A DNA stretch of 64,000 nt from a virus (Duplodnaviria; Caudoviricetes): the IMG/VR virus record IMGVR_UViG_3300021164_001175, positions 1 to 64,000 of that record. One strand, written 5' to 3'. Below are positions 24,846 through 59,503 of the stretch, piece by piece. The notes under the pieces were generated by a model. It did not search any database. It was given only the letters and a program-made list of their open reading frames with translations, and was not told the DNA's origin. Position 1 is the stretch's first letter, and every line of letters begins with the position of its first letter. The translations under genes were made by a program, and so were the position numbers.

Positions 24846-26810
24846 ATGAACGTTCTCAGTCTTTTTTCCGGCGTGGGTGGCTTTGACATGGGCCTTGAGG
24901 CGGCGGGTTACAAAACAATATTTCAATGCGAATGGGACAAAAACTGTCAAAAGGTATTGAACAAGCATTGGCCTGATGTCCCAAAATGGGGAGATGTCTC
25001 AACACTCACTGGAGAGCACATTATTCGCGCATCAGGTCCACCGGATGTCGTTGCATGGGGAAGCCCGTGTCAAGACATGTCCGTTGCCGGCAAGCGTGCT
25101 GGTCTCGAGGGTGCCAAGTCGGGACTGTTCCACGAAGGAATCAGAATCATCAAGGAAATAAGGGAGCTAACAAACAATGAATATCCAAGAATCTCTATAT
25201 GGGAGAACGTCCCAGGAGCACTCTCTTCCAACAGAGGTGCTGACTTCGGGGTCGTCCTTGACGAAATGGCAAAAGCAGGGGCGTTGGTCGTCGAATGGGC
25301 CGTCCTGGATGCTCAATTTTTCGGAGTGCCCCAGCGCCGACGCCGCATTTTTCTCACAGCTCTCTTCAATCCTAGAGATGCCGAGCAATGTGGATTCAAA
25401 ATTTTTCCTGTCTCCGAAAGCTTGCCAGGGGATTTTGCGTCGCGCGCAAAGAAGAGGAAAGGAACTGCCGCCGGTTCTCCTCGAAGCACTGAATCGAGTA
25501 GCCAACCGAGCGCCTTTGGAAACTCCGGAATGGAAAAATGGGGAGACACCGAAGTAGCAATCACGTTGTCTGCGCGTGACTTCAAGGGCGGCAATACTGT
25601 CGTAATCGAAGGAACTCCATTAGCGCAAGAGGCTTTCACGAAGTCCCGACATGCGAAGGACTCAGAGGATTTTGAAACGTGGGTGCCAGGGGAAGTGTCG
25701 CCCACGTTGAATACTTTTGAGAATCACCAAGACACCCGTGCGACAGTTGCCATCGTGCAGCCGGAAGCTCTCGTTATTGACGGGACTAGGAACGATGATG
25801 TGCGCGTTTACGATGACGGAATCTCTCCAACGTTGACGCATCGAATGGGAACCGGAGGAAATAACACTCCGATGATTTTTGATGAAAGAAAGCCTAATTC
25901 TCCAATCGTCCTGGACAGAGCGGCGTTCAATCAAGGCCCAAATGCGCAGTGGGAGCCGCTGATGGAAGAAGCTGAATCCGTTCCGGCACTCGTTGCGCGT
26001 GGACCACATGCCGTGCTTGATACGTCGGGACTGTCTGATGAGATTGTGTTTGAACCTGGCGCGATGTCTCGAATGAAGTCCGATTATTACTCAGACAAGC
26101 TTGCACCAACGTTGCGTGCGAACATGGGAGATAATCAGCCGGCTGTAACTCAGCGTCTTGAAGCTACACCAATCCAAGATGGCCGTGAGATGGAAAAGAG
26201 TCAAAATGGGTTGGGAATTGGCAGCCCAGGTGACCCGGCGTACACGCTCGATACAACCGGGGCTCAAGCTGTTGCATTCTCGATACGTGAAGATGCAAAA
26301 GCTAACAACTTCAGCGCAAATGAGATTGAAATAGCTAATGCACTCCAGGCTCTTCAGCCGGCAACAACTTCGCATCATGCGCAGACACTCATTGCTCAGG
26401 ATGGAGTCCCGATTCACTCGTTTGACACTCAGTTTGGCTCGAATGCCGCAGTGTTTGAGAATCAGTCCCCAACTCTGAAGGCTTCACAACAATCGCCATC
26501 CGTTGCATACGTTTATGATGGATACAACCAAAGTGTTGATGATTCCGGAATCCATCGTTCGCTTCGCGTTGGTCGAGACTCAGGTGACTTCGTTTCAGAC
26601 TCAACGATGGTAGTGAGACGTTTGACGCCCCTGGAATGCGAGAGACTTATGGGATGGCCTGAGAATCACACCAAGTATGGGGCCGGCGATGAACTTATTG
26701 CCGATACTCAGAGATACAAGATGTGTGGCAATGGAGTTGCAAGTCCAGTAGCTAAATGGGTAGGCGAAGTATTGCTCACTACCTTAGGGGACAGCAAGGT
26801 CGAGGCTTAG
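24846..26810 (+). CDS. C5-cytosine DNA methyltransferase with a long repeated variable region
   Basis: Motif I LFSGVGG, IV GSPCQD, VI ENVPG, VIII QRRRRIF, IX RRLTPLECERL, X GNGVA. Confidence 0.92.
   Translation: MNVLSLFSGVGGFDMGLEAAGYKTIFQCEWDKNCQKVLNKHWPDVPKWGDVSTLTGEHIIRASGPPDVVAWGSPCQDMSVAGKRAGLEGAKSGLFHEGIRIIKEIRELTNNEYPRISIWENVPGALSSNRGADFGVVLDEMAKAGALVVEWAVLDAQFFGVPQRRRRIFLTALFNPRDAEQCGFKIFPVSESLPGDFASRAKKRKGTAAGSPRSTESSSQPSAFGNSGMEKWGDTEVAITLSARDFKGGNTVVIEGTPLAQEAFTKSRHAKDSEDFETWVPGEVSPTLNTFENHQDTRATVAIVQPEALVIDGTRNDDVRVYDDGISPTLTHRMGTGGNNTPMIFDERKPNSPIVLDRAAFNQGPNAQWEPLMEEAESVPALVARGPHAVLDTSGLSDEIVFEPGAMSRMKSDYYSDKLAPTLRANMGDNQPAVTQRLEATPIQDGREMEKSQNGLGIGSPGDPAYTLDTTGAQAVAFSIREDAKANNFSANEIEIANALQALQPATTSHHAQTLIAQDGVPIHSFDTQFGSNAAVFENQSPTLKASQQSPSVAYVYDGYNQSVDDSGIHRSLRVGRDSGDFVSDSTMVVRRLTPLECERLMGWPENHTKYGAGDELIADTQRYKMCGNGVASPVAKWVGEVLLTTLGDSKVEA
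25177..25557 (+). CDS. Nested +1-frame ORF inside the methyltransferase (putative second MTase polypeptide)
   Basis: GGGAG RBS; LSSILE...KFFLSPKACQGILRRAQRRGKELP resembles an MTase-associated segment. Confidence 0.55.
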   Translation: MNIQESLYGRTSQEHSLPTEVLTSGSSLTKWQKQGRWSSNGPSWMLNFSECPSADAAFFSQLSSILEMPSNVDSKFFLSPKACQGILRRAQRRGKELPPVLLEALNRVANRAPLETPEWKNGETPK

Positions 26811-30570: not shown

Positions 30571-32430
30571 ATGGATGCGGCTACCTATGTCCTGATGCTC
30601 CAGGATGACCATTTAGTACTCGATTTTGCTTACGACGCAGCCCAGGTGGCCGAGATAAAGCTCATTCCAGGCTCAAAGTGGGACAAAGTAGCTAAAGTTT
30701 GGCGCGTACCGGCAACGAGTATCCGGTTAGCTCGAGAGTTCTGTCAAAAACACGGCCATTCGATTGCCGGCGACGTGCTGCGTTTGACGGTCCCGGACCA
30801 AGGTGGTAGCACGGGACTATCGCTAAATGGTGAATTTATCTTCTTAACGTTTGCGTATGACCCGGTAAAAGTGCGCAGCGTTAAACAAATACCTGGAATC
30901 ACCTGGCACGCAAAATCGAAAGCCTGGAGAGCGCCGCTAACGTCGATTAAAACTGCAATAAAGTGGGCCGAAACATTCAAGCAGCACATTCCGGCTGACC
31001 TGGTCGAAGCGGCTGAAAACGTCGAAAATAGCTTAAATAATCTTCGAGAAGCCTCCCGGTCGACAGACGCGGCGTTGAAGCTGGATGGTTTTACGGGACT
31101 AATGGCGTATCAACGTGCCGGAGTCGAGTACGCAGCGCGCGCACGTAAGTGTTTCATAGCTGACGAGATGGGGCTGGGAAAGACGCTGCAAGGCATTGCC
31201 ACGCTCGAGTTAGTAGCGCAGAAATTCGATTGTTTTCCGGCAGTAGTTATGTGTCCGGCTAACCTGGTACTGAACTGGGAAAAAGAGTACGCAAAGTGGG
31301 CTCCCGGTCGACGTGTAAAAATAGTGAAAAATCGAAAGGAATTCCCGGCACCAGGCAGCTACGACGTGGTTGTTGTTGGTTATAGCAATATAACTACCTG
31401 GGAGAAGCAGCTTACCGGGGCAAATGCGTACATTTTTGACGAATCTCACTATCTGAAGAGCTTTACAGCGCAGCGCACAAAGAGCGCATTGAAGATGACT
31501 AAGAATCTTCGCCGCGAAGTCCCGATATTATGCCTTACCGGAACACCCGTAACGTCAAAGCCGGCTGAATATGCGGCTCAACTCGAGATTCTCGGCCAGC
31601 TGAATAAGTTTGGTGGAAAGTGGGGCTTTTATCGAAGATATTGCGCTGCGTTCCAGGACAAATACGGCCAGTGGCACCTGGACGGTAACTCAAATCTTGA
31701 TGAATTAAACGACTTGCTGCGCTCGACGTGTTATATCCGGCGTACAAAAGCGCAAGTTCTTACAGATTTACCCCCGGTTCTACACTCGATTGTTACGTTC
31801 GAGGGGGCTGCTGCAGCCGTTAAGGAATATCGAGCGGCTGAAGATGACGTTACGCAGTTTCTACGGGACAACAGCGGCGCTGATATGCCCACGCAGCTAG
31901 CCAGGATAAGTATTCTTCGCCGATTAGCCGCTCAGGCGAAGATGCCGGCTGTAATCGAATGGGTCCAGGAACGTGTCGACGCTGGTAAGAAGGTTGTAAT
32001 TGCGGCCCACCATCGGGACATTGTTGATGCATTGGCGCAACGTTTCGGCGGCCTGAAGATACAAGGCAGCATGACTGTCGAGCAAATCGAAGAGAATAAG
32101 AAGATATTCCAGGAATCGAGCGTTATCGAAGCTCCGGTAATCGTTCTTTCGATACAAGCGGCGAAGACCGGGCACACATTGACTGCAGCTCAAGACATTT
32201 TGTTTGTCGAGCTCCCCTGGACACCGGCTGATGTGCAGCAGACATTTAGCCGGCTACACCGTATCGGCCAGTTAGGGAGCGTTACAGCCACGTATGCGCT
32301 GCTTGAGAACTCCATTGACGAGGATATCCACCGACTCCTAGAGCGAAAGCTAACAGTTGTTACTGAAGCAATCGATGGAGCCAGTGGTCAGGAGGTTATC
32401 CTCTCGCTACTTGGCAGGAGAAGCCAGTAG
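30571..32430 (+). CDS. SNF2-family (SMARCAL1/HARP-like) helicase
   Basis: Two N-terminal HARP-like repeats (IPG.KW....KxW), ADEMGLGKT, DESH, LTGTP, IRRTK, QTFSRLHRIGQ. Confidence 0.9.
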   Translation: MDAATYVLMLQDDHLVLDFAYDAAQVAEIKLIPGSKWDKVAKVWRVPATSIRLAREFCQKHGHSIAGDVLRLTVPDQGGSTGLSLNGEFIFLTFAYDPVKVRSVKQIPGITWHAKSKAWRAPLTSIKTAIKWAETFKQHIPADLVEAAENVENSLNNLREASRSTDAALKLDGFTGLMAYQRAGVEYAARARKCFIADEMGLGKTLQGIATLELVAQKFDCFPAVVMCPANLVLNWEKEYAKWAPGRRVKIVKNRKEFPAPGSYDVVVVGYSNITTWEKQLTGANAYIFDESHYLKSFTAQRTKSALKMTKNLRREVPILCLTGTPVTSKPAEYAAQLEILGQLNKFGGKWGFYRRYCAAFQDKYGQWHLDGNSNLDELNDLLRSTCYIRRTKAQVLTDLPPVLHSIVTFEGAAAAVKEYRAAEDDVTQFLRDNSGADMPTQLARISILRRLAAQAKMPAVIEWVQERVDAGKKVVIAAHHRDIVDALAQRFGGLKIQGSMTVEQIEENKKIFQESSVIEAPVIVLSIQAAKTGHTLTAAQDILFVELPWTPADVQQTFSRLHRIGQLGSVTATYALLENSIDEDIHRLLERKLTVVTEAIDGASGQEVILSLLGRRSQ

Positions 32431-41348: not shown

Positions 41349-44300
41349 CTATCCTTTTCTTGCCTGTCTGCCGGCCTTAGCGGCGTTACGTGTGTTGGAT
41401 ACGAACTGTTGTCCCGACCTGGAGCCTTCGATTTTCTTTCGATTTGTGGCTTTACGCTGTTCCGGGGTGAGCTTTTCCCAGGCTGCGTCCGGGAGGTAGC
41501 GGCGTGTGCCACCTGGCCGTTCTGCCGGGGCTCCGTCGGACGTTCTCCATCGTTCTTTTGTCCACTTTTTGAGTGAACGCTGCGTCTTTGATGGTTTTCC
41601 TTGATACCCGCCGCCTGCAGCTCGATATTTCTGGGCAACAAGTTGTGCTTTTCGAGCAGACCACTGTCCCGGCTTGCCGCCATCACTGCCGGCCATGACC
41701 TGGTTCTTGATACGTTCCCGAAGTGCCGGTTTTGTGTAATTCATCGACTTTGTGAGCTGCTCTGGCGCGTGTCTGGTGAAGTCCCGTACTGCAAGCTCGG
41801 CCCACTGCGGCGCTGCATTGAGGGACTTTGTTGCAATATCGACTAAGCGGCCAGTATCAGACAACGTAATGCCGCCGAAGTCCGGGTCAAGTTCGTCGAG
41901 TGGGATAAAACCCTTTGGACGCTTCTTGAAACGAGAAGATATTGCTTCCCACGAGGTAGCCATACGCCCAATCATTTCACGACCGAGTTTGGTAATGGCT
42001 TCAGTACGTTCTGCGAGTGCTTCCTTCACATTGTCATAGATTTCTTTAGCACGTTCTCTATCAATGATTGAGTTAGCTACCAAGTCTTTGAGTAGAAGCC
42101 CCATCATCTCGATGCCGCCCAATCGAAGGGCATCTTCTAGTCCCGAGTCTACGAACCCTTCTAGTGCGTTGACCTGTGTTGTACTTACGCTTGACAATGG
42201 GATATTAAGCTTCTGACTAATTTGGAGTTTTGCTGCCATCTGTGCAGTCATGACGCCGGCTTTTACCAAGTTGCGTACATCGTCGTTACCCTTAAAATTA
42301 TTCCAATGGTCATCAAACTTTTGGACTATCTCGTCGTACTTCTCACGTAAGTCACCTGTAAGCCTGGAACGAACATCATTTATGGCATCAAGAACTGCTT
42401 GTTTTCTATTTGCTTCAGTGATTGGAGCGGCCTTTGACGCACGTGCAAGTAAGTCCCGACCGTCAAGCGGCTTATCAACTGTTCCGCGGCTGGCAAAACC
42501 TGGCTTCTTATCTTTTTCTGCTTCAGCTGTCAATCGAGCAATGTCTATCATTGTCGATGTCCACTCGCCGTGTTCTGATTGCCACGTAGCGTGGTTGTTG
42601 TCATGTAGTCCCGACGTCTTGCCAGTATCGAGCAACGTGCGCTTCACCGGAGCTCCGGTTCGACTGTCCTCACGGTCTGCGGCTCGACGGATAGCCGCTT
42701 CGATGATAGCCCAAGAGGCTTCAGCATCAGCGTCGGCGCTATGCCAGTTAGTAAGTTCTACTCCATAGTGGTCTGCGAGTGCGCCAAGACGATTGGACTT
42801 AGGTGAGTCAGGGTCACCCTTCTCGTACAAGTGGTCAATCACTCCCTTTGAGTCAATGAACCCAGCTGGCTTCCATCTACCTTCTAGTCCCGTTCCTTTG
42901 AGTGCTTCTTCCATGACACGTTGGTCAAAGATTTGGTATTGACCACCCAATATTTTGTTCTCACCAATGAAGTCGAGTGCTTCTGCCATAGATTGTGCAA
43001 CTGTCGGCTGCTGTTGTAGCCACTCATCTGTCAACGGGACTTCTACGCCGTTCTCATCGAAACGTTTGAGGTTATCTTTCGACCAGCCGCCAAGCGCTTG
43101 CCCTGGGTTCATATACATATTCTTACGTTCGACGACTTTCCCATCGACTATCCGAATAATTCCCATTTGTACTGGCTTGCCGCCGTTAGTCATAATCCCA
43201 TTTGCGTCGTTCTCGATGCCGGTGGTCTCAAAATCAAAGAAAATTAGCTCACCTTTTGTAAGCCGCTCGAGTACCTGGCGATACGTCGTAGCTCCTTCGA
43301 ATAATCGAGCTGCTTCCCCGGTGTATGGCGATACCGGCTCACGCGGCTCACGCGGCGGCTCTGCCATCTTCGCGTCGGGACCAGTCCCGATAATCTTGGG
43401 CTTTTGCACCTTGTCGAGTCGGAACGTGCGGCCTTCTCCGAGTACACGGTCGAAGCCATCGACGTATGAAACGCCATCTTTTTCATAAACGTTCTTTACG
43501 TCGACACGTCGAAGCTGTCCGTTATACATAAAAGTAGCTATTTTTTTGTCGTCCAGGCTGCGTTGCAGCTGCGTCTTGAGTGATTCGATGCTGGCAGGTG
43601 TTATTTCGTCGTCTATTTCCATCGGGACTTCGTTGTCTCCACGTGAGGCGAAGCCAGGTACGTTCACTTTCTTGGCCACTCGAGACTTTCCTTCCGGTGG
43701 TCGAGCGTTGGGGAAGTATTCTTTGACGTATTTTGTTAGCTCTGATTCGATTTGTGCCGCGTCGTATCCAGGCTGTATGTTCATAACCGTAAGCTTTGGA
43801 AGTCCATTGCTATCCTCGATAACGGATACTCGTGCTACTCCGCGGCCGCTTTGTCGAACCATAAAAGTGTTTGTTGTCGAGTCAGTGTGATACAACTCGA
43901 GTTTTTCGCCATCTTCTGTCTCGAAGTAACGTGGTTTTAGCTTCTTGTAGCCGCGTCGCTTCTTGGTGCCGGCCACAGTCTGTGCCGGGATAGTCGTGTC
44001 AGTCCCGCCGCGTGAGGCGAAACCACGAGGAACGAGCGGCTCAGGGGTAAAGTTCTCAATCCAGGGCATACGTCGCTGCTTCTTGCCGCCTGGCGCATCG
44101 AACTCCGGGATATCGAGTAAGTCATAAATAGCTTCTTTTAGCGGCGTATTCATTACGTCAAGAGCTTGTGGGTTACCTGAGAGTATCGCACTCATTGCTT
44201 CTGCAACAAGCTCATTGGTGTTTGTTAGACCGTACTTAGTATCGGTTATTGGGAACTTATCAGTCGACCACAACGGGTTCTCACGTTTGGACTTGATTGC

Positions 44301-47300
44301 AACATTTGTGTCGTCTGAGTGCAGCAGCTTCCAGGCTTTAGCAGCGCGTGATTCCGGGTCAATCGAGCCGCGTTCGATAGCCAGGTTCATTTTGTAATCG
44401 AGATAGTGGCCGTACTCGTGTAGGAACGTTGCTTCGGGACTACTATCGAGAATCATGTGGTCACCGGCCTGTGGGATATGGCCGAAGTTCATACGTTTAC
44501 CCTCGACTAGGTTCTGATGCACCTTTGAGCCAGGAAAGAACTGCATCTGGCCGATACCAGGAAAGTAAGCTGCCGAAATTGGGAAGTCACCAGAAGCTAT
44601 CATTTTTCCGAGAACTTTTTCGAGACGTACCGGGTCGTCGAGTGTCGCCTCAATGTCTTTGCTAATAAATGAATTGTTTAGTTGGCTAAGTATGTCATTG
44701 CCACTATCACGTGTGAGTGCGTGCATTAGTAACATACGGTTACGTGAACGTTCACTACCCATGACCAGTGGTGGCAAGCCATACTTTTCTGCATAATGTC
44801 GCAAAGCTGGGGAAGTATCCAAAGCGTCTCGTAAGATTGTTTGAGCTTGCTTGACACCTTCTGGGGATAAGTCTGGTGGGTGCTGCTGTATCTGCTTCTG
44901 TACGTGGACGGCTAACGGGACTAACCAGGTGCGCTTGGCACGTGGATTGTCAATGTCACTCAGGTCAATGAGCTTGCGTATGTCACCTGGCTTTAGACCT
45001 TCTTTTAGGAACATTTCCTCAATGCCGGCGTCTTCGATAGCTTGGTCAAAGGCCATCATCACGTATTCCTCTTTTGAGGTAGGTACGGCATAGGCAATCT
45101 TTTGTTCGGTACTCGTGTTAGCGAATATCTCTGAACGTTTCCTTGTGGTTGTTGAGGTGAATATACCCCAACCAGTTTTTGTTACTCGTCCCTCTAAGAA
45201 CGGAGTTACTTCTTGTTCTACCTCTGGAGTCCCGCCGCGTGAGGCAAATCCAACATTGAGTTGTTCCACACTGTCTTGTGCGACATCATTGCCAAACACA
45301 ATATCCATTGCGTTCTTCATACCTGGAGATAACAATGCTTGTTCGTCCTCGTATGGAGAAGTGTATGCAGAGTATGCCTCTGCGAACATCTCAACTGGAG
45401 AAGTCCACCCATACATTGAATTTGCTTCAGGAAAATCTGGATTACGAAGTTTTTTTGTTCTATTTTTGTACTGTTCTTCCCAATCAGGCATATTTACAGC
45501 TTGGAAGAATTCTTCCCAAGTTTCAGACATAAATGCATCAACTACGTTGTATGCCTCACTGTTGCCTAGTCCCGCATTCCACATATCTCTCATAAGTTTG
45601 GTGTGGATAAAGTGACCGTATTCGTGACGAACCGTTCCATCGCCATCGCCATCAACGTGTGTGTATTCAACTCCTTTTGGTGCTTTTGTCTTCCATCTTA
45701 GGAAGTTGCTAAGAAGTCGTTGAGCTCTTGACGGAGGTGCATTCTCAATCAGACCCTCTCGTTGGTGCTGCCGGATTTCGGTGAGATAATTTGGTGGATA
45801 AATGATTATTCCGTTATTTAGCTCTTTGAAGCCGAGATAAGCACCATTGAAGTCCTCTAGGCCACGTTCCTCAAGTCGCTTTAGTCCCGCATCTGACAGC
45901 ATCACTGTTTGTGGAGTTCCATACATTTGGTGGTGACGGAAAAATGCTGGATTATTGTCAAGTATTTCTTTTTGTCCAATTCGTAACTGTGCAACTTCTT
46001 GGAAGTCAAAGAAACTCGCTAATTCATCAGGGTCGGTAGTACCGAACTTCGCACCAAAGAATTCCATGAGTTTTTCTGGTGTTATTAGACCTTCATTTAC
46101 CTTGTCATCTTGGTTGTCCGATACAAGCTTCATTATCATCTCATCAAAATTGGTTGGAATGCTTTCCTCAACCATTTCGGCTGTATCCATTGTCTTATAG
46201 ATAGGATGCCATTTATCCTTGTTTCCTGCTGGGGTAAGTACGTCATTACCTCTGGAGGCAAAGCCTTGTATCTCAACTCTTGCTTGTGGTGTGTATGACT
46301 GTTTCTCTTGGAGTTGTTCTACTAGTCCCCTACTTGAGTCAAGTTCTAGTAGTTCAGTGATAATGCCTTTGAGGCCACCACTTACTAAGTCATCATCACT
46401 TTGTTCAGGTGAGAGTAAGGCACTCATTGCCTCTGCGAACTGTTCTGCTGGGGAAGTCTCACCATATACGGTACGAACAAATGGCATCTCATCAGGTAGG
46501 TCACTTCTATCATGGAAGGCAGTGTCCCAATCAGGGTTGTCTAAGAGTGCACTGTATATATCGCCTACTGTGCCGAACCTCTTGAAGCCATCTGCTGACC
46601 ACTCCCCTGAGTTGATATATCGTGCAAGGTTCTTTAGTCTCTTATCACCACTATCCTTGTGCATATCACCAAGTGTTCTACCTACATGGTGACCGAACTC
46701 ATGAAGCATGGTGTGTCGTAAGCCTTCTTGTACGACCCACCTTCTGGACTTCTTGTTACCACCTGACATATGCTGTGGTGCAAGGCGAGCCATTATCTTA
46801 GCAAAGGTGACATTGCTAATCTTCTTTACAACGGTGTTCTGTTTCATACCTTCTTGTGAGTAGCCAATGCCAAAGTCACTAGAGTAGATACCACTGAACT
46901 CTGCTGCCACATCATCACTGAATACGAACATAGGTGGCATACCAAAGTCATCTACTAACTGTCTGAACTGTGGTGACTCATCTAGGTTCTTAGCAAGTGT
47001 TTCTCTCAATGCTCTTATCTTGGTAGGTGAGAAGTCAAAGGGTATATCGTTACCCATATCCCTACCCGTGAGCTCTTTTATTTGTTCTTGTATATAGTCA
47101 ATGACTGCTTGTCTATCTACTGTGCCTCGTTTGTTACGGTATGGATTAGTAGTGAGGTACACAACTGCTTGCTCTGCGAACTGTGCCATCAATCCTTCTA
47201 GTGTGTCAGGCACTACTGTCTCTACTATCTCTGCATTAGACATACCTTTGTGTCTCTTGCGATGGTTTTGTTTCTTATCGTTACCAATTGCATTGCCTAT

Positions 47301-47498
47301 TGCTGCCATTGCTTTCTTTGTTTTCTCAATGGCATCATCAATCGCACCAATGATTGCAGGTCGTTCAAATGGTGTGTTGTCTTGCACCATACCATCACCA
47401 TCACCATCGATTGCATCTGCATCAAATGATTGGTTTAGTGCTTTGCGATTGTAACGATTGAGTTCAGTTACATCTGCGACATACGACATGTTATTCAT
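41349..47498 (-). CDS. ~2050-aa polyvalent protein: three HExxH zincin peptidase modules, GNAT-like remnant, WYL domain, DEDDh 3'-5' exonuclease, C-terminal DUF5872-like module
   Basis: HEFGH (46689-46703), HEYGH (45612-45626, 44406-44420), each with downstream ExxAEA; RTFRLDKV WYL signature; FFDFETTG...WHSADAD; NYTKPALRERIK...PGQWSARKAQ. Confidence 0.85.
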   Translation of the reverse strand: MNNMSYVADVTELNRYNRKALNQSFDADAIDGDGDGMVQDNTPFERPAIIGAIDDAIEKTKKAMAAIGNAIGNDKKQNHRKRHKGMSNAEIVETVVPDTLEGLMAQFAEQAVVYLTTNPYRNKRGTVDRQAVIDYIQEQIKELTGRDMGNDIPFDFSPTKIRALRETLAKNLDESPQFRQLVDDFGMPPMFVFSDDVAAEFSGIYSSDFGIGYSQEGMKQNTVVKKISNVTFAKIMARLAPQHMSGGNKKSRRWVVQEGLRHTMLHEFGHHVGRTLGDMHKDSGDKRLKNLARYINSGEWSADGFKRFGTVGDIYSALLDNPDWDTAFHDRSDLPDEMPFVRTVYGETSPAEQFAEAMSALLSPEQSDDDLVSGGLKGIITELLELDSSRGLVEQLQEKQSYTPQARVEIQGFASRGNDVLTPAGNKDKWHPIYKTMDTAEMVEESIPTNFDEMIMKLVSDNQDDKVNEGLITPEKLMEFFGAKFGTTDPDELASFFDFQEVAQLRIGQKEILDNNPAFFRHHQMYGTPQTVMLSDAGLKRLEERGLEDFNGAYLGFKELNNGIIIYPPNYLTEIRQHQREGLIENAPPSRAQRLLSNFLRWKTKAPKGVEYTHVDGDGDGTVRHEYGHFIHTKLMRDMWNAGLGNSEAYNVVDAFMSETWEEFFQAVNMPDWEEQYKNRTKKLRNPDFPEANSMYGWTSPVEMFAEAYSAYTSPYEDEQALLSPGMKNAMDIVFGNDVAQDSVEQLNVGFASRGGTPEVEQEVTPFLEGRVTKTGWGIFTSTTTRKRSEIFANTSTEQKIAYAVPTSKEEYVMMAFDQAIEDAGIEEMFLKEGLKPGDIRKLIDLSDIDNPRAKRTWLVPLAVHVQKQIQQHPPDLSPEGVKQAQTILRDALDTSPALRHYAEKYGLPPLVMGSERSRNRMLLMHALTRDSGNDILSQLNNSFISKDIEATLDDPVRLEKVLGKMIASGDFPISAAYFPGIGQMQFFPGSKVHQNLVEGKRMNFGHIPQAGDHMILDSSPEATFLHEYGHYLDYKMNLAIERGSIDPESRAAKAWKLLHSDDTNVAIKSKRENPLWSTDKFPITDTKYGLTNTNELVAEAMSAILSGNPQALDVMNTPLKEAIYDLLDIPEFDAPGGKKQRRMPWIENFTPEPLVPRGFASRGGTDTTIPAQTVAGTKKRRGYKKLKPRYFETEDGEKLELYHTDSTTNTFMVRQSGRGVARVSVIEDSNGLPKLTVMNIQPGYDAAQIESELTKYVKEYFPNARPPEGKSRVAKKVNVPGFASRGDNEVPMEIDDEITPASIESLKTQLQRSLDDKKIATFMYNGQLRRVDVKNVYEKDGVSYVDGFDRVLGEGRTFRLDKVQKPKIIGTGPDAKMAEPPREPREPVSPYTGEAARLFEGATTYRQVLERLTKGELIFFDFETTGIENDANGIMTNGGKPVQMGIIRIVDGKVVERKNMYMNPGQALGGWSKDNLKRFDENGVEVPLTDEWLQQQPTVAQSMAEALDFIGENKILGGQYQIFDQRVMEEALKGTGLEGRWKPAGFIDSKGVIDHLYEKGDPDSPKSNRLGALADHYGVELTNWHSADADAEASWAIIEAAIRRAADREDSRTGAPVKRTLLDTGKTSGLHDNNHATWQSEHGEWTSTMIDIARLTAEAEKDKKPGFASRGTVDKPLDGRDLLARASKAAPITEANRKQAVLDAINDVRSRLTGDLREKYDEIVQKFDDHWNNFKGNDDVRNLVKAGVMTAQMAAKLQISQKLNIPLSSVSTTQVNALEGFVDSGLEDALRLGGIEMMGLLLKDLVANSIIDRERAKEIYDNVKEALAERTEAITKLGREMIGRMATSWEAISSRFKKRPKGFIPLDELDPDFGGITLSDTGRLVDIATKSLNAAPQWAELAVRDFTRHAPEQLTKSMNYTKPALRERIKNQVMAGSDGGKPGQWSARKAQLVAQKYRAAGGGYQGKPSKTQRSLKKWTKERWRTSDGAPAERPGGTRRYLPDAAWEKLTPEQRKATNRKKIEGSRSGQQFVSNTRNAAKAGRQARKG

Positions 47499-47582
47499 TG
47501 TGTGTCTATTGTAAAGTAAGGGTGCAATAGGGTATAGCAACTAAGTCTGATTGCATTGTCTATTGGATTACCTAGTTTGAGT

Positions 47583-47843: not shown

Positions 47844-48635
47844 CTACAGGCTGGTGGTGATTACATTCCCAGTTCTCTGGTCAAGTGGTGGTAGTTCCTT
47901 TACCACTAAGGCTCTCTGTAGCCATCTATCGGTTCCGTCGTATCTCGGCTGGAATGGTGCTCTTCCGTGTACACAGGCATGGTTGTTGATAACCAAGATA
48001 TCCCCTGTCATGAGGGCAATCTTTCGTGTAGCGAGTGAGATTGCTTTGTCTAGGTGCTCTAGAGCAAGTCTTGCTTGTGGAGTTGTGCCTTGCATGAGGG
48101 TCTTGTCGTAAATGAGCGAACTTCCATTGAGGATAGAAGTAGTTATTGTCCTATCCGGTTGTCCATCATTTTGGAAGGAAATGTCTAGGGAGGTAGTGAA
48201 GAGCTTCTCTCTCAGGATTTCTTTGATTCCGCCGCTGAGATTCCTCAGAATATTGGAAAGCGTTGCAATCGTAGTGAAGGCTTCTGGGTCACCTCGTAAA
48301 CACATCAGCAAAACATAGTCAGGTCGATAAGGATGGAAGGCTGTCTCTGTATGAAGCTCTAGTTGCACCTTTGATGACGTGGAAATCTGTTGATACTCGG
48401 TCTTGTGGTTAGGTACAAGATTCTGAATCATCATTCCATTATGTTCTTGCCTATAGCCAATCAAATGACCAAATAGCGCCGCTTTTTCTCTGAGGATATT
48501 TGTTTCCGGCAGCACGACATTGTCTGGAGTCATCGGAGTTGGTGGAACATCTTTACCCGTGAACTGGTTGGGGTACAACTCATATTCAAGAACATTGAAT
48601 TGATTTAGATTTAAATGAGTGGGGTTGAATATCAT
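47844..48635 (-). CDS. Fe(II)/2OG dioxygenase, clavaminate synthase / AsnO-like (TauD superfamily)
   Basis: LELHTETAFHPYRPDYVLLMCLR; INNHACVHGR; RYDGTDRWLQR. Confidence 0.88.
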   Translation of the reverse strand: MIFNPTHLNLNQFNVLEYELYPNQFTGKDVPPTPMTPDNVVLPETNILREKAALFGHLIGYRQEHNGMMIQNLVPNHKTEYQQISTSSKVQLELHTETAFHPYRPDYVLLMCLRGDPEAFTTIATLSNILRNLSGGIKEILREKLFTTSLDISFQNDGQPDRTITTSILNGSSLIYDKTLMQGTTPQARLALEHLDKAISLATRKIALMTGDILVINNHACVHGRAPFQPRYDGTDRWLQRALVVKELPPLDQRTGNVITTSL

Positions 48636-51957: not shown

Positions 51958-52980
51958 TTAAGCCATTGAAAGGATGAGTTCTTGGGCTGCTGTTTTCTTC
52001 TTATTGACCCATGAGTATGTATTCATGGAAGAAACAGCCCGTTCCTCTTTTGTCGCTTCTCTGTAGTGGTCTAGGTACTCGGTAATGGTGTTGTACATTG
52101 CCCAGCCGTTTTGACCCACTCCACCAGCATTCGTTTTCTTTGGGTACAAGACCTTCATGGCCTCAAGAATCAGTTCTCGATTCTTTTGCTGAGTCTTGCT
52201 CTCGTTTTTTGTCTGGGTGAACAATGTGTTGACAATATAGTCAAACTTTGCTGACGATTTATCAATTGGAATCTGCAACATCTTTTCTGCTGATTGAGCA
52301 AAGATGTGCGCCCATGATTTTGACAATCTCAACACTTCTTGTGCATCATTCACGATGAAGTCAGCATTTTTTGTATGCCTTGCAGTTACTTTCATTGATG
52401 CATCTTGAATAGCGGTAAAAACTGTGTTCTTACATACTGCACGAATTGGTGTGTTGGCAAATGTGATTGGTGTTTTTCCATCATGTCCATTACGAACAAC
52501 GATGTATCTATCAATTCTGTCGTTGATTCCATTTGGGTCAATATGAACAGCACCTAGGTCAAGTGTTGCAAAAAACTCACGACCGCCATCAAGGACACCG
52601 CATGTATCAATAAGTGCATCTCCCTTTGATGCCCCAACAACGGCTAATGCCCTTTCAAGTACTTCCCTATTTTGTTGTACTACGTATCGTGTCCCAACGG
52701 TTGATAGAGCATTAAATGTCCCATCACCATTAACACGAATTGTGGCTCTTGAATCTTTTACGATTATCGCAGAGCCATCTGGATTCAATAAAAAATTACC
52801 TTCAGCATCAACCACTGCAACACCGGCTGTAACAACATCAAAGTCAGCATTTGCTGCACGGAGCATGTCGGGGATTGTCTGGAGCCCCTTAACTGGGGTT
52901 CCCAGTTTGTGCCAAGGGACAGAATGGTCGGCATAAGCCATCCGTGCCTGCATATTCGTGATTTCAATTCCGTGTGCCAT
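51958..52980 (-). CDS. DUF932 / TIGR03299-family protein
   Basis: MAH...VPWHKLG; YVVQQN; NGHDG; TPIRAVCKNT; RHT; WAMYNTITEYLDH. Confidence 0.85.
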   Translation of the reverse strand: MAHGIEITNMQARMAYADHSVPWHKLGTPVKGLQTIPDMLRAANADFDVVTAGVAVVDAEGNFLLNPDGSAIIVKDSRATIRVNGDGTFNALSTVGTRYVVQQNREVLERALAVVGASKGDALIDTCGVLDGGREFFATLDLGAVHIDPNGINDRIDRYIVVRNGHDGKTPITFANTPIRAVCKNTVFTAIQDASMKVTARHTKNADFIVNDAQEVLRLSKSWAHIFAQSAEKMLQIPIDKSSAKFDYIVNTLFTQTKNESKTQQKNRELILEAMKVLYPKKTNAGGVGQNGWAMYNTITEYLDHYREATKEERAVSSMNTYSWVNKKKTAAQELILSMA

Positions 52981-52998
52981 CCCTATAGGATAGTGCAT

Positions 52999-55197: not shown

Positions 55198-57123
55198 ATG
55201 TCTTACATTGACGACTCTCTCGTTGCTTCCTACTCAACACAAACACCTCCCTGGGGATTTAGCGGTCTTGGTGAAATTGTTTATTTGAGGACCTATTCAC
55301 GCAAGAAGGACAACGGTGATTTGGAGAGCTGGCCAGAAACTCTCCAGCGAGTAATCAATGGAGCAATTGAAGTTGGCGCAAAACTTTCACAAGAAGAAGC
55401 AGAGAAACTCTTTGACCACTGCTTCAATCTTCGCGCATCTTTTTCGGGTCGCTCACTCTGGCAACTTGGTACGCCGCTTGTTAAGAAGCTCAATGCAACA
55501 TCGCTAAATAATTGCTATTTCACCAACATTGAGAAGATTGAAGACTTTGAGATGTTGTTTGAGTATTTGATGCTCGGTGGAGGTGTTGGATTTTCTGTAG
55601 AGCGAGCAAAGATTCACGACTTACCAAAAGTTCAAGAAGGTGTAGTCATTACCCAAGAGCGAAGTAACGATGCGGACATTATTGTCCCGGACTCCCGTCA
55701 GGGTTGGAAGCGTTTACTTCATGCTGTGCTTAAGTCGTATTTTGAGACCGGAAAATCTTTCAGTTACTCAACGATTTTGATTCGTGAGTTCGGTGCTCCA
55801 TTGAATACATTTGGCGGAACAGCATCTGGACCCGGTGCCCTGATTGAAGGTGTTAAAGATATTTGTGGAGTGCTTGAAAACCGAGTAGGAAAGAAGCTTC
55901 GCTCAATTGATGTTCTTGACATCTGCAACATCATTGGTCGAATTGTTGTTTCTGGTTCATCACGTCGCTCAGCACAGATTGCGATGGGTGACCCAGACGA
56001 CGTTCTGTTCCTTCGTGCAAAGAACTGGGGTTCAGGGAATGTTCCAGCATGGAGAGCCAATTCAAACAACAGCATCTATGCCGATTATTACGAAGAAATT
56101 CAACCAGAACTCTGGAAGGGTTATGACGGAACTGGAGAGCCTTACGGTTTGCTGAATCGTCGCCTTGCTCGACGCTTTGGTCGTACTGGAGAAGTGAAGG
56201 TTGATAATTCAATTGAGGGTTTTAACCCATGTGCGGAAATCGCACTTGCGGATGGCGAATCCTGCAACCTTGCAACATTGTTTTTACCGAACATTGATTC
56301 CTATGAACAATTTGTAGAGATTTCAACTCTTCTGTATAAGGTACAAAAGCAAATCACTCAGATGTCCTACCCATACGAAAAGACAACGAACATTGTTCGC
56401 AAGAATGCTCGCTTGGGACAATCCATAACTGGAATCCTGCAGTGTGAAAGCGAAAAAATGACATGGCTTTCGGATGGCTATCAGGCTCTTGTTGACTACG
56501 ATGCAAAATTCTCAAAAGAGAATGGATTGCCAACATCGGTAAGACTCACCACCGTTCAGCCTTCGGGAACATTGTCCCTTCTCCCAGGTGTGACTCCAGG
56601 AATCCATCCTGCATATGCCAAGTACTACATTAGGCGTGTTCGTTTCGGTTCCTCTGACCCACTTGTTGAAGCATGTCGCAAGCGTGGATACAAAGTTCAG
56701 TGGGACATGGGCCTAGATGGAAGAGAAGACCACACACGTTATGTTGTGGACTTTCCGTGCGAATCCCCAGAGGGTTCCATCCTTGCCAAAGACATGACAG
56801 CCGTAGAACAGTTGGAATGGGTAAAGAAAATGCAGACGGAGTGGGCAGACAACGCAGTATCCGTAACTGTCTATTACCGCAAGGAAGAACTTCCACTTAT
56901 CCAAGAATGGTTGTCAAAGAATTACGATAAGAGTGTAAAGTCCGTTTCATTCTTGCTACATACTGACCACAACTTCGTTCTTCCTCCATACGAAGAAATC
57001 ACAGAAGCTGAATACATAAAGTTTGCATCAAAAATTGACTTAACAATTCCGATGGTTCAGCGTTCGTTTGACGGAGAGTTGGATTTGGATAACTGCTCCA
57101 CTGGCGCGTGCCCGATTAAGTAA
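55198..57123 (+). CDS. nrdJ: Class II (adenosylcobalamin-dependent) ribonucleotide reductase, monomeric type
   Basis: RTYSR, SLNNC, GGGVGFS, RRSAQI, NPCAE, CNLA, TTVQPSGTLS, AVSVTV, C-terminal CSTGACP. Confidence 0.92.
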   Translation: MSYIDDSLVASYSTQTPPWGFSGLGEIVYLRTYSRKKDNGDLESWPETLQRVINGAIEVGAKLSQEEAEKLFDHCFNLRASFSGRSLWQLGTPLVKKLNATSLNNCYFTNIEKIEDFEMLFEYLMLGGGVGFSVERAKIHDLPKVQEGVVITQERSNDADIIVPDSRQGWKRLLHAVLKSYFETGKSFSYSTILIREFGAPLNTFGGTASGPGALIEGVKDICGVLENRVGKKLRSIDVLDICNIIGRIVVSGSSRRSAQIAMGDPDDVLFLRAKNWGSGNVPAWRANSNNSIYADYYEEIQPELWKGYDGTGEPYGLLNRRLARRFGRTGEVKVDNSIEGFNPCAEIALADGESCNLATLFLPNIDSYEQFVEISTLLYKVQKQITQMSYPYEKTTNIVRKNARLGQSITGILQCESEKMTWLSDGYQALVDYDAKFSKENGLPTSVRLTTVQPSGTLSLLPGVTPGIHPAYAKYYIRRVRFGSSDPLVEACRKRGYKVQWDMGLDGREDHTRYVVDFPCESPEGSILAKDMTAVEQLEWVKKMQTEWADNAVSVTVYYRKEELPLIQEWLSKNYDKSVKSVSFLLHTDHNFVLPPYEEITEAEYIKFASKIDLTIPMVQRSFDGELDLDNCSTGACPIK

Positions 57124-58189: not shown

Positions 58190-59503
58190 TTATTCGCCGT
58201 TTGGTGCTGCGTCGAAGGTTACTTCAACGAACGACTCCGGACGCTTGACAGCAAGGGCGAGACGTTGCTCGGCCAAGATGACAATTGCGTTGCGGATGAA
58301 GAAGTCTGCATGCTGTTCCGAGATACGGATGCTTGCTTGTTCACGGTCATAGAGCTGTGCGCCCTGACCAAATGAACCAACAAGTGCCTTACCCTCGGTC
58401 ATTGCAGGAGTTTCAACGATTGGCAAACGCCATACCTTTGGCTCGCCACCCATTGCAACCGAAACTGCGATGAGGTACTGGCCATTGCCATCCTTGGTCA
58501 ACTCAATGTCTTCCCAATCGTTTGGATGCATTACAACACCCGATGGCTCGTAGTAAGCCAAGAACGAAAGAGTTGCTGCACGACGGATTGCATCAGCCTT
58601 GGTGTCAATCATACCTGGGTTTGTTGCCGAGTATGCACCATCAGACCAATCGTAGGTCTGAATGCCTGATGTCTGAAGAATACCGGTGAGGTTTTCGCCA
58701 GAGCCATCGCCATTGAGGATTTGAGCATCTTCCTGAAGACGGAGACCGTACATCAGTTCGTTATCAATGATTGAGCGTAGTTGTGGCTCATCAGCAAGAA
58801 CGTTTCTGTGTGCTGCCTCCCAGTGTGCAAGGGTCTTGACCGAAGTCTGTACACCCTCAAACGACATGCTTGACTGTGGCTTAACACCAAAGGTTGCCGA
58901 AGCTCCACGCTCTGCAACTGCTGCGGCGTTGTTCGTGAAACCAGTCATGCGGAAGTATTCAATGATTGCTGCAGTCGTGGTACGAACTGGGAACAAGTCA
59001 CGAACTCTCTTCGTGCGCTTTGGCTGAATGACGATTGGGTCACGCTGAACAGTGCCGAACTGGTCTGGGAAGCCGCTTGGCATTGAGGTGTAAACATCCT
59101 TAACGCTGTAGCTGCCCGAGAGGCTTGAGCCGTATTGGAAAGGTGCTGGCATGTTTGCGCCATTCTTTCCACCATTAAGGGACTTGAATTCCGTTGAAGC
59201 AAGGAATGCTTCGCCGATTGACTCGAGTCGACGGGTTGGGATTGCGTAGCCAGCGGCAGCTGCAGCAGCAACTGATTGACCACTTGCCTCGGAGCCCCAC
59301 TCTTTAACAGTGTTCATGGCTTCCATGCCGTCAATCAAGGACTTGATTTCCTTGATGTCTGTCATGTTCTTGTCAAATGCAGACTTTTGCTTTGCATCAA
59401 CGATTACGGTGCCATTTTCAACTTTGAAAGAGTCGGCGATTGCTTTGTTTTCCGACATTTTAGTGCGGAGAGCTCCTTGGAGCTCCTTTAGATTTTCTGA
59501 CAT
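58190..59503 (-). CDS. HK97-family major capsid protein with N-terminal delta domain
   Basis: VKTLAHW, LADEPQLRSII, QILNGDGSG, VMHPNDW, FIRNAIVILAEQRLALAVKRPESF. Confidence 0.93.
   Translation of the reverse strand: MSENLKELQGALRTKMSENKAIADSFKVENGTVIVDAKQKSAFDKNMTDIKEIKSLIDGMEAMNTVKEWGSEASGQSVAAAAAAGYAIPTRRLESIGEAFLASTEFKSLNGGKNGANMPAPFQYGSSLSGSYSVKDVYTSMPSGFPDQFGTVQRDPIVIQPKRTKRVRDLFPVRTTTAAIIEYFRMTGFTNNAAAVAERGASATFGVKPQSSMSFEGVQTSVKTLAHWEAAHRNVLADEPQLRSIIDNELMYGLRLQEDAQILNGDGSGENLTGILQTSGIQTYDWSDGAYSATNPGMIDTKADAIRRAATLSFLAYYEPSGVVMHPNDWEDIELTKDGNGQYLIAVSVAMGGEPKVWRLPIVETPAMTEGKALVGSFGQGAQLYDREQASIRISEQHADFFIRNAIVILAEQRLALAVKRPESFVEVTFDAAPNGE

Follow-up and report, generated by a model that had tools for sequence, protein, structure and literature searches.

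Why should a single six-residue peptide recur, letter for letter, between the modules of one giant phage protein? This question is raised by a gene in the IMG/VR virus record IMGVR_UViG_3300021164_001175 (Duplodnaviria; Caudoviricetes), which comprises 93,135 bp and is estimated to be 63% complete; bases 1-64000 of the record constitute the stretch analyzed, here termed the window. The product of the gene, here termed the window protein, carries the sequence GFASRG five times. The first-pass annotation of the window had viewed GFASRG as the processing code of a polyprotein, to be cut either by the protein's own HExxH modules or by a head protease. The linker position of the motif, the constraint on its peptide, the presence of a second motif-rich giant and the variants found in relatives all support a role as punctuation, from which we infer cleavage. 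With a probability of roughly 55%, the motifs are cleavage sites of a prohead protease that would release packaged cargo cassettes.

The open reading frame (ORF) of the window protein (41349..47540, minus strand) yields a stop-free translation of 2063 amino acids (aa) from an upstream TTG codon, while the public gene call begins at M15 (position 47498) and gives 2049 aa, in agreement with the earlier coordinates. Residues are given in the 2063-aa numbering. A pattern scan recovered exactly the five copies of GFASRG noted previously, and none in the other frames of the window. Two AlphaFold2 models were built on homolog alignments, one covering aa 400-1310 (model 1, mean predicted local distance difference test score, pLDDT, 72.8) and the other aa 1280-2063 (model 2, mean pLDDT 59.7). 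The gene and the motif copies are as follows.

41349..47498, minus strand: giant tagged polyprotein gene with six cassettes (2049 aa from M15; ORF open to 47540)
46248..46265, minus strand: GFASRG copy 1 (aa 426-431), in coil of pLDDT<50 at residues 1-40 of model 1
45234..45251, minus strand: GFASRG copy 2 (aa 764-769), in coil of pLDDT<50 at residues 353-377 of model 1
44007..44024, minus strand: GFASRG copy 3 (aa 1173-1178), in coil of pLDDT<50 at residues 760-787 of model 1
43638..43655, minus strand: GFASRG copy 4 (aa 1296-1301), at pLDDT<50 in residues 889-911 of model 1 and 3-23 of model 2
42483..42500, minus strand: GFASRG copy 5 (aa 1681-1686), in coil of pLDDT<50 at residues 398-441 of model 2, after the exonuclease module

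The proposal that every copy lies at a domain boundary, in a disordered linker, was thus put to the structure prediction suggested for it, and five of five copies were modelled as coil of pLDDT<50 between confidently folded domains. A few other disordered intradomain loops lack the motif. The boundary at copy 5 is less certain on its C-terminal side, because the last cassette was poorly predicted.

Genome-wide, 11 exact copies of GFASRG were detected, the five of the window protein and six in a second protein of 3975 aa; outside these two giants the exact motif is absent from all frames of the whole record. The pattern G-[FL]-[AGSR]-S-R is present five times in the window protein and 20 times in the second giant. 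A looser core, G[FLM][ASGR]S, was counted five times in the former (shuffle mean 0.4) and 21 times in the latter (shuffle mean 1.0), versus five times in the remaining 23,387 aa of the record, which is the level expected by chance. A short consensus site therefore recurs in the presumed cargo, with 25 sites in two proteins and chance level elsewhere. The codons of the 11 exact copies vary synonymously at all six positions, including TCN versus AGC and CGN versus AGA; on average they are 77% identical in nucleotides and share exact runs of 7 nucleotides (nt). As had been proposed from the window copies, the constraint acts on the peptide and not on the DNA. A literature search for the literal string GFASRG, over 8.4 million papers, produced no match.

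The second giant is encoded outside the window, on the minus strand at record positions 69532-81459 (G000), directly after the portal gene (record 81526-83538, minus strand). Its aa 37-186 match Peptidase_S78 (PF04586) with 37.8 bits against a cut-off of 21, and Gordonia and Brevibacterium phages have annotated capsid maturation proteases with 37-42% identity to this domain. An alignment of 22 sequences from across the clades shows no variation at H74, S138 and H170, which by analogy with the family are putative catalytic residues; a phmmer search of the protease domain against PDB sequences returned nothing, and thus no anchor for that assignment. The large terminase is divergent upstream of the portal gene, and the capsid protein follows about 10 kb downstream of the second giant on the same strand:

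58190..59503, minus strand: major capsid protein, HK97 fold (phrog_10, E 5e-69)

The second giant therefore occupies the canonical protease slot, placed between the genes for portal and major capsid protein, which share its strand (minus). The larger ORFs that were scanned in the record include no further peptidase. A search with tblastn of its first 650 aa against cultured phages matched the protease domain alone, so that none of these cultured phages has the fused giant.

Downstream of the protease, the second giant holds four KTSC domains as well as ArdC-N (PF08401; aa 3059-3171, E 8.7e-26) and MPTase-PolyVal (PF18818; aa 3198-3319, E 6.7e-38), the signature domains of polyvalent proteins. 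The latter two form a complete ArdC of natural size (about 320 aa; cassette aa 3045-3369), which is exactly bracketed by motifs at aa 3041 and 3366. Protease-ArdC fusions did not come up in a literature search. If all motifs were cut, the window protein would fall into six pieces and the second giant into 21, and many of the computed pieces of the latter are 50-250 aa in length with isoelectric points of 4.0-4.6.

The occurrence of the motif was analyzed further among relatives of both giants. In relatives that are 69-85% identical to the window protein, none of the five borders has lost its motif. The aligned sites of nine such orthologs all read GF[AS]S, followed by variable positions 5 and 6 (RG, RS, RA, TS, AS), as in the forms GFASTS and GFASAS at motif 4; a protease site constrained on its non-prime side typically shows such an asymmetry. 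More distant relatives, of about 3400 aa and 21-25% identity, carry GFASR[TA] three times. Contrasts between flank and motif conservation gave no linker signal, as the close orthologs are too alike. A natural C>T variant at window position 45235, found in one freshwater metagenome (run X2), converts motif 2 from GFASRG to GFASRD, which fits tolerance at motif position 6. Among 26 population variants this is the only one inside a motif, a number too small for a test of selection.

The first 700 aa of the second giant match at least 239 proteins of 2.2-5.7 thousand aa (kaa). In a protease survey, 121 giants were retrieved via the protease region; S78 is the only peptidase common to this family, and its presence in all 121 is partly built in by that retrieval. 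Their cargo varies, and includes ArdC, UvrD-type helicases, sigma-70 region 4, helix-turn-helix (HTH) domains and pentapeptide repeats; some S78 giants carry the same RNase_T and WYL pair as the window protein. In nearly every giant the commonest 5-mer is a lineage variant of the motif: GFASR, GLASR, GFGSR, GMRSR, GMASR, GLAS[ST], GFSSS, [KR]LSSG or GLASG, with the common form G-hydrophobic-x-Ser-x. These variants fall into clades on the tree of the protease domain. On balance, at slightly better than an even chance, GFASRG is the local form of a G-hydrophobic-x-Ser-x processing signal at the cassette borders of the two head-associated giants of this uncultured freshwater phage.

The boundary peptide persists despite module shuffling. 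Such a recurrent peptide had been named as something to search for in homologs, and lineage-specific forms were indeed found to flank homologous cassettes: in P0145, a protein of the LSSG clade, a homologous ArdC cassette is bracketed by LSSG at aa 1740 and 2061. The 165-kb contig of P0145 has the same synteny, with terminase, portal, S78 giant and, further downstream, capsid protein. Moreover, ten close relatives of the second giant differ by 24 distinct indels of 100 aa or longer, and in 9 of these each end lies no more than 12 alignment columns from a motif; in 2000 trials with randomly placed motifs, the corresponding number averaged 0.5 and never exceeded 6. The gain and loss of cassettes thus proceeds in motif-delimited units.

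Besides the linkers, the two giants of this phage share only a 33-aa stretch, 51% identical, around DGDxDG-x3-D-x-T-x-F-x-RP. The stretch, here termed the tag, lies at about aa 437-453 of the second giant, and in the window protein as follows:

47358..47408, minus strand: N-proximal tag DGDGDG-x-VQD-x-TPFERP (aa 45-61), with a loop of DxDxDG type; candidate capsid-targeting signal

All relatives that resemble the window protein, even those with only 21% identity, have retained it N-terminally, and in the S78 giants it hardly varies (about aa 425-440). When the tag region was compared with 1.84 billion representative proteins, 91 clusters matched. In this independent sample, retrieved by the tag alone, giants with three or four HExxH carry 6-12 motifs versus fewer than 0.8 after shuffling. 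Smaller tag proteins (500-1300 aa, one or two tags, a single HExxH) lack a punctuation motif, and look like members of a broader, unnamed family of phage proteins that combine the tag with a zincin. To act, the protease has to reach the inside of the procapsid, and its chain has nothing but the tag in common with the unlinked giant; the tag is thus the most likely candidate signal for capsid targeting or docking.

The modules of the window protein, between its motifs, were assigned as follows.

46689..46703, minus strand: HExxH-1 of zincin cassette 1 (aa 280-284), weak Zincin_1 match
45612..45626, minus strand: HExxH-2 of zincin cassette 2 (aa 639-643), weak ATLF-like match, paralog of cassettes 1 and 3
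44406..44420, minus strand: HExxH-3 of zincin cassette 3 (aa 1041-1045)
43656..44006, minus strand: small basic cassette 4 of 117 aa, GNAT-like as a weak lead
42705..43571, minus strand: cassette 5, WYL (aa 1324-1382, weak) and RNase_T/DEDDh exonuclease (aa 1433-1612), confident fold
41355..41753, minus strand: C-terminal part of cassette 6, DUF5872-like (weak), phrog_17747 and phrog_14910

The module list proposed earlier holds for the three HExxH sites and for the RNase_T/DEDDh exonuclease (E 8e-7). WYL and DUF5872 are weak matches, and the GNAT label of cassette 4 comes down to weak leads (Foldseek E 0.62; Atlas score 0.86-0.87). The zincin matches are likewise weak, below the Pfam cut-offs, and the three zincin cassettes are old paralogs of one another (22-25% identical, E 1e-14 to 5e-5). 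When the aa 400-1310 model was compared with PDB by Foldseek, nothing reached E<=0.001; apart from the GNAT row, the hits were limited to weak zincin rows resembling anthrax LF (E about 1e-2). Two PHROG families span the last ~130 aa, whose relatives (30-66% identity) are small stand-alone genes, often two of them adjacent, from cultured Pelagibacter, Roseobacter, Methylophilales, Synechococcus and Puniceispirillum phages. The cassettes of the polyprotein therefore draw on free-standing phage genes. With three zincins, the WYL and RNase_T pair and a DUF5872-like part, several unrelated domains are combined in one chain, as is characteristic of polyvalent proteins.

Which enzyme would read the motif, and at which bond? 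Of the two candidates named in the first-pass annotation, the head protease is favored, as S78 is fused to the sister giant. The HExxH modules of the polyprotein have fared less well: 67 of the 121 protease-fused giants lack any HExxH and yet keep 7-20 motifs (for example, 13 MRSR in P0132), so that self-processing by zincins is not the general mechanism. Among related head proteases, T4 gp21 cuts after L/I-x-E, and herpesvirus assemblin cuts at V/L-x-A|S. In SPN3US the prohead protease, gp245, has packaged ejection proteins as substrates, which it cleaves after A-x-E with a preference for Ser at P1' (PMC10052503). The order hydrophobic residue, free residue and Ser in the motif mirrors their P3-P2-P1 layout, and a cut next to the invariant Ser is therefore favored, probably as GFAS|RG and alternatively as GFA|SRG. 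A complex prediction that paired S78 (aa 1-200, 22-row alignment) with a 42-aa linker around motif 1 scored 0.00, and carries no weight either way.

Several observations weigh against cleavage by the prohead protease. S78 is highly conserved across clades (70-99% identity, with 105 of 167 positions at least 95% identical), and still the prime side of the motif differs between clades (RG, G[KR], RS, S/T), while one small clade uses SSSRS, which lacks the hydrophobic position. A conserved protease and a variable prime side imply either that only G-hydrophobic-x-Ser is read, or that a few residues retune specificity; protease positions 145 and 147 (near S138), 54, 24 and 102 correlate with motif class, a correlation confounded by shared ancestry. 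In the other head proteins the core is no more frequent than expected by chance. The capsid protein, whose N-terminal region of about 100 aa is helical and delta-domain-like, lacks a GFASRG-like site. This region is followed by FLAS-T (aa 100-104; window 59192-59206, minus strand), which reads FLDS-A in the capsid protein of the LSSG clade (70% identical overall). FLAS-T may be a hydrophobic-x-Ser maturation cut, but it is ambiguous and has no lineage-specific prime side, and a site shared by capsid protein and giants could not be shown. The gene of the window protein, moreover, has genes for metabolism and replication as neighbors, and about 10 kb separate it from the head module. Finally, the phage is uncultured, and the proposed cleavage is deduced from sequence and predicted structure.

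Other explanations of the motif were considered alongside the prohead protease. The giants may act intact, as beads on a string, with the motif serving uncleaved, in flexible linkers, to dock them to DNA, a chaperone, the portal or the inside of the capsid, or as a grip by which an unfolded giant is threaded through the tail. We regard this as doubtful. It accords with the invariance of all six residues, stricter than that of many protease sites, with the putative status of the cut, and with the full-length transfer of ArdC and of giant proteins of the N4 vRNAP type mentioned in PMC5512222. It fits poorly with the exchange of whole motif-bounded cassettes, with the precise bracketing of a complete ArdC (about 320 aa) in two lineages, with the subsite-like pattern in which GF[AS]S is fixed and positions 5-6 are free, and with the fusion to a protease as the one constant of the family. 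Cutting by the zincins of the polyproteins themselves (the three HExxH cassettes and the ArdC MPTase), in cis or in trans, before packaging or after injection, appears unlikely. Many zincins prefer a hydrophobic P1', which the F, L or M of the motif would suit if the bond were G|FASRG, and the tagged giants that resemble the window protein consistently combine their three or four HExxH with 6-12 motifs. Autoprocessing of polyvalent proteins driven by MPTase domains was, in addition, proposed by Iyer et al. (PMC5512222). Against zincins stand the 67 giants that keep motifs without HExxH, although a zincin acting in trans from a partner resembling the window protein would still be compatible with them; the smaller tag-plus-zincin proteins that carry no punctuation; and the AlphaFold2 models, which left all five motifs as low-confidence coil and docked none of them into a zincin cleft.

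A host protease that cuts the motif after ejection, so that the effectors are freed only in the infected cell, is improbable. Fragments that start with Arg are N-degron substrates, and host cutting after Ser would leave such fragments and make the effectors short-lived. Release after injection has also been considered for polyvalent proteins (PMC5512222). However, the motif variants track the clade of the phage protease and no known host enzyme, the differing prime sides across lineages would need different host enzymes, and the phage supplies a protease of its own in the same polypeptide. Least probable by far is that the repeat serves cassette shuffling as a recombination joint at the DNA level, with the peptide incidental, a view that the codon data largely rule out. 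Cassette indels do end at motifs, but the synonymous variation at all six codons of the 11 copies, their 77% identity and their short exact runs (7 nt on average) speak against it, and orthologs retain the peptide while its codons drift.

If the prohead protease is the enzyme, the steps may be envisaged as follows. Both giants would enter the procapsid via the shared DGDxDG...F-x-RP tag, and the S78 protease would cut each motif during head maturation, probably right after the invariant Ser, in the layout of a P3 residue, a free P2 and a fixed P1 known from related head proteases. The products would be about 6 + 21 separate proteins, including three zincins, the WYL-exonuclease, a complete ArdC, KTSC modules and many small acidic proteins. 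These would stay in the head and be ejected with the DNA as an anti-defense and take-over kit; delivery with the DNA is suggested by the head-module position of the second giant and by the shared tag. We tentatively propose, at a little short of an even chance, a protein-level operon, in which the protease is fused to its own substrates, the tag recruits a second polyprotein, and the lineage code allows cassettes to be plugged in, swapped or dropped, and released in the capsid for co-injection.

The window protein gene lies on the same strand as the head module. It is flanked on one side by genes for a TauD-family dioxygenase, DUF932 and ribonucleotide reductase, and on the other by primase/helicase genes. 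The neighboring genes, together with two others of the window, are the following.

47844-48635, minus strand: TauD-family dioxygenase, immediately upstream of the polyprotein gene
51958-52998, minus strand: DUF932
55198-57123, plus strand: ribonucleotide reductase
24846-26810, plus strand: C5 cytosine DNA methylase
30571-32430, plus strand: SNF2-family helicase

A megablast search of the gene against 50,697 phage records returned nothing, and tblastn of the window protein against phage records matched only its last ~130 aa. An IMG/VR search with the window protein gave a single close relative, which is incomplete. Near-identical DNA was detected in 20 runs from 14 studies, mostly labelled freshwater or lake-water metagenomes; the three DNA runs compared yielded contigs, from three studies, that span the gene completely or almost completely. 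An RNA library (X12) yielded contigs for parts of it, which is not proof of transcription.

Elsewhere in the record, a 1440-aa protein (63727-68049, minus strand) has no family match and no motif besides a single GLAS. Its positional counterpart in a contig of the LSSG clade (L015:2364-9998, plus strand) comprises 2544 aa, lies two genes downstream of the S78 giant and contains four [LF]SSG. Among the giants of the survey, those of the SSSRS clade (P0101, P0105, P0107, P0109 and P0116) are rich in HTH domains, and P0116 repeats LSFFE six times near its C-terminus.

The two giants resemble several known systems without coinciding with any of them. As described by Iyer, Burroughs, Anand, de Souza and Aravind (2017; PMC5512222), polyvalent proteins are giant multi-effector chains with ArdC-N, MPTase-PolyVal zincins, nucleases and DNA-binding domains, which are predicted to travel with the DNA and to be processed. 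Processing is attributed there mainly to MPTase domains, with assemblin-like peptidases at C-termini only, and term searches of the same article turned up no recurrent inter-domain junction motif. In contrast, the protease is N-terminal here and occupies the canonical gene slot of the prohead protease, and an explicit, lineage-specific peptide delimits every cassette. The ArdC of IncW plasmids R388/pSa has the same composition (ArdC-N and MPTase-PolyVal) and the same size as the cassette described above; the latter, however, is embedded in a polyprotein, bracketed by motifs, and belongs to the second giant and not to the window protein.

In T4, phiKZ and SPN3US, packaged proteins are known to be processed by a prohead protease (PMC10052503). 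As in T4 gp21 (with its substrates IPs and Alt), phiKZ gp175 and SPN3US gp245, the candidate enzyme here is a head protease of the assemblin/HK97 superfamily; theirs cuts capsid-targeted, ejected cargo at a short consensus. Unlike those phages, in which a free-standing protease removes an N-terminal propeptide from the products of separate cargo genes, the protease is fused here to its presumed substrates, with 5-20+ sites per chain and G-hydrophobic-x-Ser instead of x-x-Glu. A polypeptide that carries its own protease and many mature proteins parted by a conserved short site also recalls the polyproteins of picornaviruses (3C) and potyviruses (NIa), by analogy and not by homology. Those are eukaryotic RNA viruses which release core replication and structural proteins, whereas here a tailed double-stranded DNA (dsDNA) phage would treat accessory cargo in this way, inside its capsid.

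Processing of polyvalent proteins has been proposed since 2017 without a defined pair of enzyme and site, which has made it hard to test. In the family described here the sites are readable from sequence, 25 in one genome and thousands across the family, and a candidate enzyme resides in the same chain. If the prohead protease cuts at these sites, about 27 proteins would derive from two genes in this phage, and up to 5.7 kaa of cargo per chain in its relatives. This would be the first polyprotein-with-cognate-protease strategy in tailed dsDNA phages, and direct, motif-defined evidence that polyvalent proteins are processed. It would provide a way to divide hundreds of giant 'hypothetical' phage proteins into functional units, many of which would be small acidic proteins that may be defense inhibitors, as well as a compact protease-site pair for engineered multi-protein cargo delivery in phage capsids. 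For the phages themselves, it would constitute a plug-and-play route for evolving their anti-defense arsenals.

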